Shown here piece by piece: positions 23,971 through 44,978 of a stretch of 64,000 nucleotides of DNA. The stretch comes from Escherichia coli (lineage in GTDB: Bacteria > Pseudomonadota > Gammaproteobacteria > Enterobacterales > Enterobacteriaceae), in NCBI RefSeq assembly GCF_003334335.1, contig NZ_QOWQ01000020.1. One strand, written 5' to 3'. Position numbers and translations under genes: made by a program. Numbering within the stretch: the first letter of the stretch is position 1; each line of letters opens with the position of its first letter. The notes below the pieces were generated by a model. That model made no database searches. It saw only the letters and a program-made list of their open reading frames with translations, and was not told the origin of the DNA.

Positions 23971-24177
23971 AAAAAAACGCCTGCTCTTATTACGGAGCAG
24001 GCGTTAAAACAGGTCTGTATGACAACAAGTGGGTGCTTCACTCAACGTTGTGTCCATGGTGTCTGATGAGGCATAAGCGACATCTGTCAGTGGACGATAA
24101 GCACCGTAAACGGCTCTGCGTCATTCCGGAGTTTATGAGGCACTAAGGCGAACATAAGAGATGGAATGAGCATCTAC
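23971..24177 (-). ncRNA. glmZ: GlmZ (SraJ/RyiA) small regulatory RNA
   Basis: Minus strand begins GTAGATGCTCATTCCATCTC and ends in GC-rich hairpin (AACGCCTGCTCCGTAATAAGAGCAGGCGTT) plus U7; sits in hemY-aslA spacer as known for GlmZ. Confidence 0.85.
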
Positions 24178-24601: not shown

Positions 24602-26257
24602 ATGGAATTTTCGTTTTCACCCAAACGTCTTGTTGTTGCTGTCGCCGCCGCTCTTCCTCTCATGGCCAGCGCAGCAGATACCCCGTCAACTGCCACCGCA
24701 CGCAAAGGCTTTGCCGGATACGATCACCCAAACCAGTATCTGGTTAAACCGGCGACCACTATTGCCGACAATATGATGCCAGTAATGCAGCATCCGGCGC
24801 AGGATAAAGAAACCCAGCAGAAGCTGGCAGAACTTGAGAAAAAAACCGGTAAGAAACCGAATGTGGTTGTTTTCTTGCTGGACGATGTGGGCTGGATGGA
24901 CGTCGGTTTTAACGGTGGCGGCGTGGCGGTGGGTAACCCTACACCAGATATCGACGCCGTTGCCAGCCAGGGGCTGATTTTAACTTCGGCGTATTCTCAA
25001 CCAAGCTCTTCCCCAACCCGCGCCACCATTCTCACCGGACAATACTCCATCCACCACGGCATTCTGATGCCGCCAATGTACGGGCAACCGGGCGGGCTGC
25101 AAGGGTTAACCACGCTGCCGCAGTTGCTGCACGATCAGGGCTACGTCACTCAGGCCATCGGAAAATGGCATATGGGGGAAAACAAAGAGTCGCAGCCGCA
25201 GAACGTTGGCTTTGATGATTTCCGTGGCTTTAACTCGGTGTCTGATATGTACACCGAATGGCGCGACGTTCACGTCAATCCGGAAGTGGCCCTGAGTCCG
25301 GACCGTTCTGAATACATCAAGCAATTACCGTTCAGCAAAGATGACGTTCATGCGGTGCGCGGCGGCGAACAACAGGCCATTGCCGACATTACGCCGAAAT
25401 ATATGGAAGATCTGGATCAACGCTGGATGGACTATGGCGTTAAGTTCCTCGACAAGATGGCGAAGAGCGATAAACCATTCTTCCTCTACTACGGCACTCG
25501 TGGCTGCCACTTCGATAACTACCCAAATGCGAAATATGCGGGTAGCTCTCCGGCACGCACCTCGTATGGCGACTGCATGGTGGAGATGAACGATGTGTTC
25601 GCTAATCTGTATAAAACACTGGAGAAAAACGGTCAGCTTGATAACACGCTGATCGTCTTTACCTCCGATAACGGACCGGAAGCCGAAGTACCGCCGCACG
25701 GACGCACCCCGTTCCGTGGTGCGAAAGGTTCGACCTGGGAAGGCGGCGTTCGCGTACCGACTTTCGTTTACTGGAAAGGGATGATCCAACCGCGTAAATC
25801 TGACGGTATTGTCGATCTGGCAGATCTCTTCCCTACCGCGCTGGATCTGGCAGGGCATCCTGGAGCGAAAGTGGCGAATTTAGTGCCGAAAACCACCTTT
25901 ATCGATGGTGTGGACCAGACATCCTTCTTCCTGGGAACAAATGGTCAGTCTAACCGTAAGGCCGAGCACTACTTCCTCAACGGTAAACTCGCTGCTGTGC
26001 GTATGGATGAGTTCAAGTATCACGTCCTGATTCAGCAACCTTACGCTTATACCCAGAGCGGATATCAGGGTGGATTCACCGGCACAGTAATGCAAACGGC
26101 GGGATCGTCGGTGTTTAACCTCTACACCGATCCGCAGGAAAGCGACTCCATCGGCGTGCGCCATATTCCGATGGGTGTACCGCTACAGACCGAAATGCAC
26201 GCGTATATGGAGATCCTGAAAAAATATCCACCACGCGCGCAGATTAAATCTGACTAA
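24602..26257 (+). CDS. aslA: arylsulfatase-family enzyme AslA
   Basis: 551-aa ORF with signal peptide [24 protein letters not shown]; sulfatase CxPxR-type motif context ([15 protein letters not shown]). Confidence 0.94.
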
Positions 26258-27797: not shown

Positions 27798-27874
27798 TGG
27801 TCGGCGAGAGAGGATTCGAACCTCCGACCCACTGGTCCCAAACCAGTTGCGCTACCAAGCTGCGCTACTCGCCG
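27798..27874 (-). tRNA. proM: tRNA-Pro (CGG)
   Basis: Reverse complement reads CGGCGAGTAGCGCAGCTTGGTAGCGCAACTGGTTTGGGACCAGTGGGTCGGAGGTTCGAATCCTCTCTCGCCGACCA. Confidence 0.97.
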
Positions 27875-27916
27875 AAATACTGCTTTTTGAATTTTTAGTT
27901 CAATTCTTTAAAGTCG

Positions 27917-28003
27917 TGGTGCGAGGGGGGGGACTTGAACCCCCACGTCCGTAAGGACACTAACACCTGAAGCTAGCGCGTCTACCAATTCCGCCACCTT
28001 CGC
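27917..28003 (-). tRNA. leuT: tRNA-Leu (CAG)
   Basis: 87-nt reverse complement GCGAAGGTGGCGGAATTGGTAGACGCGCTAGCTTCAGGTG...CACCA with long variable arm. Confidence 0.97.
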
Positions 28004-28023
28004 ATTGTCACAACTTCTAATAA

Positions 28024-28100
28024 TGGGGTGGCTAATGGGATTCGAACCCACGACAACTGGAATCACAATCCAGGGCTCTACCAACTGAGCTATAGCCACC
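28024..28100 (-). tRNA. hisR: tRNA-His (GUG)
   Basis: Reverse complement GGTGGCTATAGCTCAGTTGGTAGAGCCCTGGATTGTGATTCCAG...CCCCA. Confidence 0.97.
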
Positions 28101-28157
28101 ACTACAAATCTTGTTACGCGGTATTACTACCACCGCAGCTCAAGCGCCGGGACTAAA

Positions 28158-28234
<77 letters not shown>

Positions 28235-35467: not shown

Positions 35468-36142
35468 TCACCTGTATAACCAGTACGCGGTGCTTTCTAC
35501 ATTCGCACCACTTTGTATGTATCGTTTAAGCGCGGCGGTGTTGCCCATTTGGGTCGCCACCCGCAAAGTTGTTTTACCGCGAGCATACGCCCAGTTTAGC
35601 GCCGTTTGCATCAGCTCAGCACCTGCACCGCGTCCAGCCAGCAGGCCAATTCGCGCATCTGTCGCATTGAGTTCCCGTAAAGAGACATAGCCGCGAATAT
35701 CGCCGGACGCCGCACGTAAAATCAGACATTGATGATCAAAGGTGCCGCGCACGGCATTTTCAATCCACTGTGCATAAAAGCGACTGCTGGCGTCAGGCGC
35801 ATACCACGGCGCACGAAAACGGCTTTGCGCAAATGCGGCGCTGGCTAACTGACGTAATGCGGGAATATCGGTCTCTTGTGCCACTACAGCACCGCTATCA
35901 CTGGCATTGTTCACGGGTAGCGCCAAATCAACTTCACCTTCTACCAGGGAGAATCCCAGCTGTTGCAGGGCATCCAGTTCACCCGTATTTGATGCCGCAA
36001 TTTTGGCCTGCACCCGTGACCACGGCGCTAACGCGTCTGGCGTCAGGAGCGGTGCTTCAGACGTAATGCGCACGATGGCGCTGTTAACACCAAAGAAGGC
36101 GTTTTCCCAGGTTAGTGGCTCAATACTGGCGCGGACGGGCAC
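35468..36142 (-). CDS. wecD: dTDP-fucosamine acetyltransferase (GNAT)
   Basis: 224-aa ORF; start overlaps the rffH 3' end by 23 nt. Confidence 0.88.
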
Positions 36143-37001
36143 GAAGTAACTCCAGCAGATATTGGCCGTAGCCAGTTTTCGCTAATGAACTGGCAGCACG
36201 CTTCACACCCTCGTCATCGAGCCAGCCGTTACGCCAGGCAATCTCTTCCAGGCAGGCAATCTTAAAGCCCTGGCGTTTTTCCACCGTCTGTACAAAGGTG
36301 CTGGCTTCAATCAGGCTGTCGTGAGTGCCGGTATCCAGCCAGGCAAATCCGCGCCCGAGCAGTTCAACGGTCAGGTTGCCCGCCTCGAGGTACATCTGGT
36401 TGATGGAGGTAATCTCCAGTTCACCACGCTCCGACGGCTTCACCTGCTTTGCGTACTCCACGACTTTACTGTCGTAGAAATAAAGCCCGGTCACCGCCCA
36501 GTTTGACTTCGGCTGTTTTGGCTTTTCTTCCAGCGAGATAGCGCGGAAATTGTCGTCAAACTCCACCACGCCAAAGCGTTCCGGGTCCATCACCTGATAG
36601 CCAAAAACCGTCGCCCCTTCGGTGCGCGCCGCAACATGACGCAGCTTCGGACTGAAGCCCTGACCGAAGAAGATGTTATCGCCCAGCACCAGACAAGAAG
36701 GTTCACCATTAAGGAAGGTTTCACCGATGATAAAGGCCTGCGCCAGACCGTCCGGGCTGGGCTGTTCGGCATATTCCAGCTGGATACCGAACTCACTACC
36801 ATCGCCCAGCAGGCGCTGGAAATAACCTTTATCTTCCGGCGTAGTGATGATGAGAATTTCGCGGATACCGGCCAGCATCAGCACCGACAGCGGATAGTAA
36901 ATCATTGGCTTATCGTAAATCGGCAACAGTTGCTTCGATACGCCGCGCGTAATCGGATGCAATCGGGTGCCGGAACCGCCCGCCAGGATAATACCTTTCA
37001 T
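36120..37001 (-). CDS. rffH: glucose-1-phosphate thymidylyltransferase
   Basis: 293-aa [21 protein letters not shown] (nucleotidyltransferase signature). Confidence 0.95.
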
Positions 37002-38087: not shown

Positions 38088-39349
38088 CAGCGCCAGACTC
38101 CTTTGGCATCGACGACATACTGCTGATGGACATTGTCGCCATTGATAACTTTGAACTGACTATGATCGACCAGCATCACCAGCACGTCTGCCGTTGCCAG
38201 CGCCTCGTCAAGCTGCGCCAGAGTACAAAGCCCGGTCAGTTTTTTCGGCAACTGGTGGATGTTAGGCTCAACAACCAGAGTTTCGCCGCTATGCCACTGG
38301 GCGATCAGTTCAGCGATTTCCATCGCCGGGCTTTCGCGCAGGTCATCAATATTCGGTTTAAACGCCAGACCAAAGCAGGCGATTTTCAGTTCACTGGCGC
38401 GTTTATCGGTAGCCGCCAGGCAATCAGCCACCGCCGCTTTCACCTGATCGATAACCCAGAACGGTTTGTGATCGTTCACTTCGCGCGCGGTACGGATAAG
38501 CCGCGCCTGCTGGGGGTTCTGTGCCACGATAAACCACGGATCAACAGCAATGCAGTGACCGCCCACGCCAGGGCCAGGCTGAAGAATATTAACGCGAGGG
38601 TGACGATTCGCCAGGCGAATCAGTTCCCAGACGTTAATCCCCTGATCGGCACAAATCAGCGACAATTCATTAGCAAAAGCGATATTCACATCGCGGAAGC
38701 TGTTTTCGGTGAGCTTACACATTTCCGCCGTCCGCGAGTTAGTGACGACACACTCACCTTCGAGGAAAATTTTGTACAGTTCGCTGGCGCGGGCCGAACA
38801 AACCGGCGTCATACCACCAATCACGCGATCGTTTTTAATCAGCTCGACCATTACCTGTCCTGGTAACACGCGTTCCGGGCAGTAAGCAATGTTGACGTCC
38901 GCCTGCTCGCCCACCTGCTGCGGGAAAGTGAGATCCGGACGCATCTCTGCTAACCATTCTGCCATCTTCTCGGTTGACCCCACCGGCGAGGTGGATTCAA
39001 GGATCACCAGCGCGCCTTTTTTCAGCACTGGCGCAATGGAGCGAGCAGCCGATTCAACGTAGGTCATATCTGGCTCATGATCGCCCTTAAACGGCGTGGG
39101 TACAGCAATCAGCCAGGCATCCGCTTCAACTGGCGTCGTGCTCGCTCGTAAAAAACCGCCTTCTACGGCAGTTTTTACTACACTCGCCAAATCAGGTTCG
39201 ACGATATGGATTTCGCCACGATTGATGGTATCAACCGCATGTTGGTTGATATCGACACCAATTACCTGTTTTTGCCGTGAGGCAAACGCTGCTGCCGTTG
39301 GCAGCCCGATATAACCCAGTCCGATAACAGAAATGGTCGCAAAACTCAT
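38087..39349 (-). CDS. wecC: UDP-N-acetyl-D-mannosamine dehydrogenase
   Basis: 420-aa [26 protein letters not shown]. Confidence 0.95.
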
Positions 39350-40476
39350 AGTGATATCCGATTATTTTTTAACGCTTCCAGAATGCGAGAGCATGCCTGA
39401 CCATCACCATACGGGTTATGGGCGCGGCTCATAGCTTGATATTCGTTTTCGTCTTTTAAAAGACGCGTCACTTCCTCGACAATTCGCTGCTTATCCGTGC
39501 CTACCAGACGCACCGTACCCGCCGTCACCGCTTCCGGACGCTCAGTGGTATCGCGCATCACCAGCACAGGTTTCCCCAGCGAAGGCGCTTCTTCCTGAAT
39601 GCCGCCTGAGTCGGTCAAAATCAGCCAGGCGTGGTTCATCAGCCAGACAAACGGTAAATACTCCTGGGGATCGATCAGAATGACATTTTTCACATGCCCC
39701 AGAATGCGATTGACCGGCTCTCTGACGTTCGGGTTGAGATGCACCGGATAGACAATCTGGATGTCCTGGTGCGTGGTGGCGATGTCTGCCAGCGCGTGGC
39801 AGATTTCTTCAAAGCCACGACCGAAACTCTCACGCCTGTGACCGGTCACCAGAATCATCTTTTTATCGGGGTCGATAAACGGGTAATTTGCCGCCAGTTC
39901 TGAACGCAGCTTGTCGCTGCTCATCACCTGGTCACGCACCCATAACAGTGCATCAATGACTGTATTACCGGTAATGAAGATTCGGCTATCCGCAACGTTT
40001 TCACGCAGCAAGTTTTGCCGGGAAGTTTCGGTTGGAGAGAAGTGATACATCGCCAGATGCCCGGTCAATGTACGGTTAGCCTCTTCCGGCCACGGCGAAT
40101 AGAGATCGCCCGTGCGCAGACCAGCCTCAACGTGACCAACAGGAATACGCTGATAAAACGCCGCCAGGCTGGTTGCCAGCGTCGTCGTCGTATCGCCGTG
40201 AACCAGCACGACGTCTGGTTTGAACTCGGCAAGAATAGGTTTTAGCCCTTCCAGAATCCGACAGGTTATCTCTGTCAGGCCCTGTCCTGGCTGCATTATG
40301 TTGAGATCGTAGTCAGGTACAATGGAAAAGAGTTTCAGCACCTGATCGAGCATCTCCCGATGCTGCGCAGTGACGCAAACTTTAGCCTCAAAAAAAGGAT
40401 CTTTTGCCAACGCATGCACCAACGGCGCCATCTTGATGGCTTCCGGGCGCGTACCAAATACAGTCAGTACTTTCAC
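39346..40476 (-). CDS. wecB: UDP-N-acetylglucosamine 2-epimerase
   Basis: Track ORF 390 aa; known 376-aa protein starts (M)[17 protein letters not shown] at GTG 40474-40476. Confidence 0.94.
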
Positions 40477-40531
40477 ATCGATTCTCTTCGAATAAGCGGC
40501 GAGCGCCTTTGCGCTCACCGCAGCAGTGTTG

Positions 40532-41578
40532 CTATTTCGAGCAACGGCGGGTTAATGCGACACCAGCCCCGATCAGCCCCCCGACAATGCCCCACATAAT
40601 CATCAGGAAGGCACGACGTGGGCTATCGCGTTTTACCGGTTCTTCCGGCGTACGCAAATAGCGATAGGTCTGAAAACGCGGATCCAGGGTTGGACCAACA
40701 TTCAGGGTGTTTAACATGGCCCGATTCTGATCATAGTCGAGATCAAAGGCCGGACCGACGGCCTGTAAATTTTCCAGTCGAGCCTGAAGCATTGGACGCC
40801 CAAGCAGGAACATTTCTGAATCAGGTAATTCCTCGGCAGGTACATCTGTCGCACTGCGCGAAATATTATGCTGCTCAGCAATTTTCAGCGCCTGCTCAAT
40901 GCTGTTCATCCGGCGGTCGTAGATGGCTTTCGCCACCTCTTCCTGACGCTTCACCTGAGCTTTCATCTGGATGGTACGCGCCGCCCATGCGCCTTTCAGC
41001 TCATCATTCAGATGGCTGGCTGCACGCTGGCTGGCAAAAGCAACATACTGACGTAACAGGTTATTAGCGTCAGGCGCGGTTTCGGCAATAAGCTTCACGC
41101 TGTCATTGACCGCGCGGGTAAAGTCTCCGGGGATAAACTGGATGTTGTTAATCATTTCATCCAGCAACGCCGCATCGGCTTTGCTGTTGCCCACCATCCG
41201 CTGTTTGTAATAGTCGGTTTGCAGCCAGAACTCTCTGCGGGTATCCCACGAGGCCAGTTGCATAACAAACTCTTTATAGGCTTCGTCCATGACCGATGGT
41301 TGGTCGGCAGAAGCCATGTTTGAACGGACATCCAGGTTACGCAAAAATTGCTGCTGCGAGTAATATCCCCCCAGCATATTCACCGTTGGACGATCGGTAA
41401 TCGCCGTCGAGCTCCACTCCTGACGAGCAAAAAACGTATACGCCAGCGCGATTAACGCAAACGCCAGCCCCATGCCAATAATCCATAGCTTCCCAGCCCA
41501 CAAGGTACGAAACAACCCACGAATATCCAGTTCATTTTCAGCGTCTTCGGCCGGTTTCCCAGGCATTGGTTGTGTCAT
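40532..41578 (-). CDS. wzzE: ECA chain-length modulation protein
   Basis: Track ORF 349 aa (MMTQPMPG); second Met taken as start. Confidence 0.93.
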
Positions 41579-41589
41579 CACATCCTCAT

Positions 41590-44518: not shown

Positions 44519-44848
44519 TTACGCCAGGTTAGCGTCGAGGAACTCTTTCAACTGACCTTTAGACAGTGCACCCACTTTGGTTGCCGCCACTTCACCGTTT
44601 TTGAACAGCAGCAGAGTCGGGATACCACGGATGCCATATTTCGGCGCAGTGCCAGGGTTTTGATCGATGTTCAGTTTTGCAACGGTCAGTTTGCCCTGAT
44701 ATTCGTCAGCGATTTCATCCAGAATCGGGGCGATCATTTTGCACGGACCGCACCACTCTGCCCAGAAATCGACGAGGATCGCCCCGTCCGCTTTGAGTAC
44801 ATCCGTGTCAAAACTGTCGTCAGTCAGGTGAATAATTTTATCGCTCAT
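44519..44848 (-). CDS. trxA: thioredoxin 1
   Basis: Track ORF 144 aa; known 109-aa protein starts [18 protein letters not shown] with WCGPC active site (ATG 44846-44848). Confidence 0.98.
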
Positions 44849-44978
44849 ATATAACTCCACAGGAATAAGCCTGGCGTGTTGGTTTCGTTGTTGGTGTAAC
44901 ATTAACCAACTAAAGGTTGACTTTATTTCACCGGATACGCTTTCGTAAAGCAATAGTAAGCTGATATTCTACCACACT

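Follow-up and report, generated by a model that had tools for sequence, protein, structure and literature searches.

A 23-nucleotide overlap between rffH and wecD in the Escherichia coli ECA operon is ancient within Enterobacteriaceae

Does the Escherichia coli gene wecD begin inside the gene that precedes it? The initial annotation of a 64,000-nt stretch of E. coli DNA (hereafter the window; positions refer to it unless another locus is named) had reported that wecD starts 23 nt inside the 3′ end of rffH, out of frame, at 36120–36142, and had left two readings side by side: that wecD initiates inside rffH, or that its true start is a downstream codon that removes the overlap. Here we present a comparative analysis of this junction. 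The survey took one genome per species and comprised 80 Enterobacteriaceae loci, in which WecD is 64–94% identical to the query. The 46 loci of the overlap type, together with the window, form a set of 47 distinct sequences, to which all counts out of 47 refer.

The minus strand of the window carries the ECA operon, 3′ of trxA-rhoL-rho, as judged from its open reading frames (ORFs) and from the RefSeq gene order (wecA-wzzE-wecB-wecC-rffG-rffH-rffC-rffA-wzxE-rffT-wzyE-wecG), with which the window ORFs agree. The operon is transcribed as a single mRNA of 12 kb (PMC4332155). rffH, a paralogue of rmlA2/rfbA that RefSeq names rfbA, is an ORF with an ATG start at 36120–37001 (minus strand) and encodes a glucose-1-phosphate thymidylyltransferase of 293 aa; its product scores 534.3 bits against the family model TIGR01207 rmlA (cutoff 360.65; residues 2–286) and is matched over residues 1–293 by PDB 1MC3. 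wecD (also known as rffC) is an ORF with a GTG start at 35468–36142 (minus strand), the same coordinates as those of the RefSeq rffC, and specifies 224 aa. It lies inside the wec/rff cluster, immediately 5′ of the aminotransferase gene wecE/rffA. Its product scores 357.6 bits against the equivalog model NF008212 (cutoff 219), residues 1–224 covering profile positions 1–231 of 232. PDB entries 2FS5 and 2FT0 match residues 2–224 with two substitutions (A79V and S119G), and residue Y208 is invariant in alignment A1. From its family score, structure match and gene position, the product is predicted to be WecD/RffC, the dTDP-4-amino-4,6-dideoxy-D-galactose (dTDP-fucosamine) acetyltransferase. Acetyl-CoA-dependent N-acetylation of dTDP-Fuc4N has been reported for the K-12 WecD enzyme (PMC7439462).

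The overlap at 36120–36142 (minus strand) follows directly from the ORF coordinates and was confirmed by the RefSeq gene pair and by a published table of K-12 gene spacings, in which the rffH-rffC distance is −23 (PMC10666635 Table S2). On the rffH side it contains the end of codon 287, codons 288–293 and the TGA stop; on the wecD side it contains codons 1–7 and two bases of codon 8, with the rffH stop (36120–36122, minus strand) embedded in wecD codons 7–8 (ATT GAG). wecD is one base out of frame, such that codon position 2 of rffH is codon position 1 of wecD. RefSeq strain 720632 has the same rffH/wecD pair, and 1 kb across its junction is identical to the window. The K-12 pair rffH (b3789)-rffC/wecD (b3790; UniProt WECD_ECOLI) is likewise the same locus, with 224 aa, a 23-nt overlap and the same operon order, and the window differs from it only by strain-level substitutions. 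By contrast, the statement of the initial annotation that most ECA genes overlap by 1–4 nt was too strong: by RefSeq coordinates, only 4 of the 11 junctions do so (wecB/wecC, −4; wecC/rffG, −1; wzxE/rffT, −4; rffT/wzyE, −4), the remainder being gaps of 1, 2, 4, 11, 18 and 55 nt and the −23 of rffH/wecD. Like the NTGA (−4) and TGATG (−1) overlaps of this operon, rffH/wecD joins co-directional genes on one transcript. However, it has 23 nt in common, with seven codons of each protein dual-coded, and its upstream stop lies about 20 nt 3′ of the downstream start instead of on it.

The wecD frame opens 39 nt before the GTG, being closed 13 codons upstream by an in-frame TAG (36182–36184, minus strand), and no ATG, GTG or TTG lies between the two. 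The GTG (36140–36142, minus strand) is the first ATG, GTG or TTG after that stop, and the TAG makes any longer form of WecD impossible in this strain. It consists of the last two bases of the rffH codon for Arg287 (CGT) and the first base of that for Ala288 (GCC). Seven nucleotides 5′ of it (positions −11 to −8), a Shine-Dalgarno-like GGAG is found within the rffH codons CTG-GAG (36150–36153, minus strand). The next in-frame start candidates are wecD codons 24 and 44, both GTG. In our reading, translation of wecD begins at the GTG at 36142–36140, inside rffH, and yields the 224-aa protein, with the GGAG in the final rffH codons as its ribosome-binding site and 23 nt serving both proteins; we put the probability of this at roughly 0.93. 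The location would also explain the choice of start codon: GTG is used instead of ATG because the start is contained in the Arg codon CGT of RffH, and since it is embedded in CGT-GCC (Arg287-Ala288), an ATG would need a change of an RffH residue. A natural E. coli RffH variant, HEL5802324.1, which ends in LLELLHARPRQY, carries such a change, R287H; by codon logic (CGT to CAT), the wecD GTG start becomes ATG.

Among the 80 species-level loci, the overlap is exactly 23 nt in 46, with wecD starting at GTG in 45 and at ATG in one (Intestinirhabdus), so that all 47 distinct overlap-type sequences have a start codon at wecD position 1 (46 GTG and one ATG). The same overlap was found in L084, a locus outside the 80-locus set whose WecD is 53% identical to the query. 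The recurrence of this geometry in 46 of 80 loci and in L084 shows that the overlap is not a chance ORF artefact. Conservation of the GTG could come partly from Arg287 and Ala288 of RffH, as only its middle T is free in rffH. That T is a synonymous rffH site (the third base of the Arg codon), yet none of the 47 sequences departs from it. In the GGAG, the first G (−11), also an rffH third-codon position (Leu), is equally invariant in all 47 and is one of only three invariant sites among the 49 rffH third positions 5′ of the GTG. The complete GGAG is present in 41 of the 47 sequences, the other six having GGAT, and the rffH stop is TGA in 44 and TAA in three. Within the species, 5,211 of 5,426 complete E. 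coli genomes are at least 99% identical over the 60 nt that surround the junction. The overlap is thus real and ancient within Enterobacteriaceae, and it agrees with the current reference annotation. About 2% of complete E. coli genomes (118–121 of 5,426) are without an intact match to the junction region. In one E. coli locus (L088; strain LB19b, NZ_CM196076.1), an internal deletion at 3259–3846 fuses a truncated wecD and a truncated wecE, both annotated as pseudogenes.

The pattern of variation inside the overlap differs from that on either side. All seven wecD third positions within it are invariant in the 47 sequences, versus 1 of 38 downstream (Fisher’s test, P = 2 × 10−7), and three of the seven rffH third positions are invariant, versus 3 of 49 upstream (P = 0.02). 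The changes that do occur in the overlap are silent in RffH and alter WecD residues 2, 3, 4 and 6 (P/L/H/R, V/A, R/H/L and S/N, respectively); WecD A5 and I7 are fixed among overlap-type sequences. RffH can be aligned with TIGR01207 and with RmlA crystal structures no further than residue 286–287. As the conserved RmlA core ends there, the overlap codes for a seven-residue tail, RARPRQY, outside the core and for WecD residues 1–7. Although outside the core, the tail ARPRQY (residues 288–293; 36120–36140, minus strand) is invariant at the protein level in the 47 sequences. Both genes thus constrain the 23 nt that they have in common, the synonymous sites of each being frozen by the other.

Conservation of WecD extends well beyond the overlap. 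Cross-species alignment of WecD N termini, one of the checks that the initial annotation had proposed, revealed conservation upstream of both V24 and V44 and supports the 224-aa start. In alignment A1, residues A5, L10, W12, E13, F16, F17, S21, A22, R25, L33, L38 and R43 are invariant across genera. Nucleotide diversity at codon positions 1, 2 and 3 is 0.19, 0.18 and 0.51, respectively, for wecD codons 9–23 and 0.37, 0.29 and 0.56 for codons 24–43; by this measure, the codons that directly follow the rffH stop vary as would be expected of coding sequence. We also searched for distant relatives among representatives of 50%-identity clusters. Full-length relatives, 31–56% identical, align from residue 1–12 of the WecD query, and the motif W-[DE]-x-x-F-F (W12–F17 in E. 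coli) lies mostly 7–14 residues from their N terminus, most often at residue 12. The N-terminal part of WecD has been described as an extra domain of 70 residues (PMC4363471), and in the 2FT0 structure a partial GNAT domain at the N terminus, made up of residues 3–69 and 219–224, is ordered (PMC4964394). Translation from V24 or V44 would split this domain. The crystallized protein was a tagged recombinant construct, and the structure thus proves that residues 3–69 fold, not where translation starts in the cell.

An intact rffH in front of wecD is missing from 34 of the 80 loci. When all 80 are counted, wecD begins at the same aligned codon in 70 and within one codon of it in 78. In the 34 rffH-less loci, where the Arg codon no longer restricts the choice, the commonest start codon is ATG (16), followed by GTG (11) and TTG (seven). 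In 13 of them the wecD start overlaps the wecC stop as NTGA and in three as TGATG; in the others it follows a short spacer. In Citrobacter amalonaticus (L015, about 2470–2510), only rffH is missing: rffG ends in TAA, and after 4 nt comes the wecD GTG, in its usual place in the alignment. Both rffG and rffH are lacking in other Citrobacter species, as well as in Enterobacter, Leclercia and Kosakonia species, where wecD is joined to wecC by NTGA or TGATG. The ECA-cluster paralogues of rmlA and rmlB appear to have been lost several times.

How would ribosomes reach a start that lies inside another gene? The most likely route would be initiation on the polycistronic ECA mRNA, directed to the GTG by the Shine-Dalgarno sequence. 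We infer this because the GGAG is conserved and because loci such as L082 retain GGAG and GTG although no translated ORF reaches either; the L082 arrangement indicates that the start site can work without translation of rffH. Ribosomes finishing rffH would probably assist modestly, by unfolding the mRNA or by local re-initiation, without being strictly required. A masking hairpin was not evident in a fold of 140 nt around the junction (36083–36222, minus strand), which has an energy of −43.7 kcal/mol and a z-score of −0.89 against shuffled sequences.

A stricter form of coupling can be envisaged, in which wecD depends entirely on rffH translation: ribosomes would terminate at the TGA, back up by about 20 nt and re-initiate, and the −23 spacing itself would be under selection. 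The spacing is indeed exactly −23 in all 46 rffH-bearing loci and in L084, and wecD nearly always lies close to whichever gene precedes it (at −4 or −1 from wecC in 16 loci). However, any insertion or deletion in the dual-coding stretch would break both proteins, and a fixed length of 23 nt thus needs no coupling to explain it. In E. coli, the efficiency of re-initiation falls steeply with the distance from stop to start, in experiments in which only positive distances were tested (PMC10666635), and the range given for termination–reinitiation is about −8 to +10 nt (PMC10666635; review PMC12548453), outside which the rffH/wecD spacing of −23 lies. Moreover, in four loci (L082, L026, L037 and L085) the same start is preceded by an untranslated spacer of 27–107 nt, conservation of the Shine-Dalgarno sequence suggests initiation of the ordinary kind, and the fold described above shows no unusual RNA structure at the site. 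Strict dependence is thus unlikely.

One further observation bears on coupling. In seven loci that lack rffG and rffH (L025, L029, L030, L033, L036, L045 and L055; Klebsiella/Raoultella/Enterobacter-like), an in-frame deletion of rffG-rffH has left a relic ORF of 34 codons, rffG′-′rffH. Its start overlaps the wecC stop as NTGA, and it terminates at the same TGA, 23 nt into wecD. It extends from roughly 82 nt 5′ to 23 nt 3′ of the wecD start (which is at about 2501 in these loci; about 1691 in L055), and it is 105 nt long and open in 7 of 7. Its peptide drifts freely: of 25 columns, 19 vary at codon position 1, 20 at position 2 and 21 at position 3. Retention of such an ORF would favour strict coupling, and one could suppose that the −23 geometry is functional, with a ribosome that ends 23 nt past the wecD start loading wecD, and that the relic has been kept as a relay from wecC to wecD. 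However, in a simple neutral simulation the openness of the relic in five lineages was not significant (P = 0.18), which counts against strict coupling and because of which we record the relay as a lead and not as a finding; we consider it somewhat more doubtful still than strict coupling.

The two downstream GTGs remain to be considered. Codon 24 (36071–36073, minus strand), from which a protein of 201 aa would be made, is a start-type codon in 21 of the 47 sequences and is GTT, GTC, GTA, CTG, GCG or ATA elsewhere; the 201-aa form is recorded only in automated Logan/ENA gene calls. Codon 44 (36011–36013, minus strand), the old 181-aa start, is GTG or TTG in 32 of the 47 and GTA in 12. It is from this codon that the shorter protein mentioned in the initial annotation derives, and that remark was correct: a 181-aa form starting at V44 is found in early Shigella and E. 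coli accessions (AAN45301.2, AAP18897.1, ABB68264.1, ADE89987.1 and UniRef B7MGK0_ECO45), whereas UniProt WECD_ECOLI and RefSeq give the 224-aa sequence. The old RffC has the gene and frame of the window, and its 181 residues are identical to the C-terminal 181 of the window protein, but a start at codon 44 abolishes the overlap and drops 43 conserved residues of the N-terminal domain. The family model TIGR02382 wecD_rffC (191 positions) matches only WecD residues 44–224 (35468–36013, minus strand) and was evidently built on this obsolete start call.

Production of two proteins from one gene, with a shorter isoform from V24 or V44 besides the 224-aa protein from the GTG at 36142, is very improbable. 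In-frame internal starts do occur in other E. coli genes (PMC9825163), and codon 44 is GTG in 31 of the 47 sequences. However, the internal GTGs are not conserved, and without residues 1–43 the protein would have lost half of its N-terminal domain. Among the alternative starts tabulated by INRI-seq (Table S3, which reaches to about +150 nt and includes a Ribo-RET column), there is no in-frame wecD start at +69 or +129. The only wecD entry is a weak in vitro out-of-frame CTG peak at −13 (6.6 CPM), which we treat as uninformative because similar −13/−14 entries are present for many genes.

The reading that survives least well is that the overlap is an annotation artefact, with the true start at codon 44 or codon 24 and an untranslated spacer before it: both GTGs exist in the window, several Shigella and E. 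coli genomes were deposited with the 181-aa form, TIGR02382 begins at residue 44, and the N-terminomics and ribosome-profiling supplements searched gave no direct native N terminus or initiating-ribosome signal for wecD (those of TRAINSPOTTER, of Giess et al. and of an mBio 2024 riboproteogenomics paper mention none of wecD, rffC and rffH), but this reading is hardly tenable, as the alternatives to a start-type codon at positions 24 and 44 are plain synonymous variants, in Kluyvera georgiana (L031) codon 1 is followed by no further start-type codon until about codon 54, residues 1–43 combine amino-acid conservation with an excess of third-position variation, W12-E13-x-x-F16-F17 is a hallmark of the family, and truncation would split the folded domain of residues 3–69. 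The locus thus lacks the signature of a mis-called start, its N-terminal extension being conserved and its downstream GTGs not. Of the two readings left by the initial annotation, the downstream start, which would abolish the overlap, is rejected on these grounds and on that of the solved structure, and initiation inside rffH is strongly supported by the conserved GTG and GGAG, the conserved residues 1–43 and the N-terminal domain. It is the 181-aa annotation that is the wrong start call.

Two other starts were considered and set aside. A longer WecD of 233–234 aa appears in some S. bongori and Raoultella records, from an ATG 27 nt upstream. This ATG exists only where the rffH Tyr codon is TAT (18 of the 47 sequences); E. 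coli lacks it, and its TAG blocks the frame. A non-canonical start at the ATT of codon 7 is unnecessary, since two things account for the conservation of this codon: the Tyr and stop codons of rffH, and a hydrophobic residue at WecD position 7 (I, V or L where the genes do not overlap).

This analysis shows directly where wecD starts, that this start is conserved and that the common bases are under constraint from both genes. The 224-aa start and the 23-nt overlap were already known, from RefSeq, UniProt, PDB entries and the published spacing table. What is added here is comparative evidence for the long WecD, and the recognition of the 181-aa records and of TIGR02382 as fossils of a wrong start call. 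The importance beyond annotation hygiene is small; as an illustration of dual-coding constraint the locus is small and clean. It might also be used to test how initiation works at a start about 20 nt 5′ of the preceding stop, outside the range studied for termination–reinitiation.

Several minor observations were made on the records and on the rest of the window. The 90%-identity protein cluster that holds WecD (224 aa) also contains ordinary 293-aa RffH proteins, its representative included. No RffH–WecD fusion was seen among the cluster members read, and the mixture probably arose in clustering, as an artefact connected with the gene overlap. In the same operon, the ORFs of wecB (39346–40518; GTG, 390 aa) and wzzE (40532–41581; GTG, 349 aa) exceed in length those called by RefSeq (376 aa, start at 40476, and 348 aa, start at 41578, respectively). 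Elsewhere on the minus strand are the GlmZ sRNA (23971–24177), a tRNA cluster for Pro, Leu, His and Arg (27798–28234), the TrxA 5′ UTR thermometer (44819–44918), a match to Rfam RF02744 (Rev39 5′ UTR; 60071–60363) and, at 63580–63910, tRNA-Trp, tRNA-Asp and 5S rRNA at the end of an rrn operon. On the plus strand, an ORF of 551 aa (24602–26257) is presumably aslA of the K-12 map. The otherwise closely matching RefSeq strain 720632 has only a short partial pseudogene between hemY and aslB; with the 551-aa ORF in the window, this indicates that the locus varies between strains.
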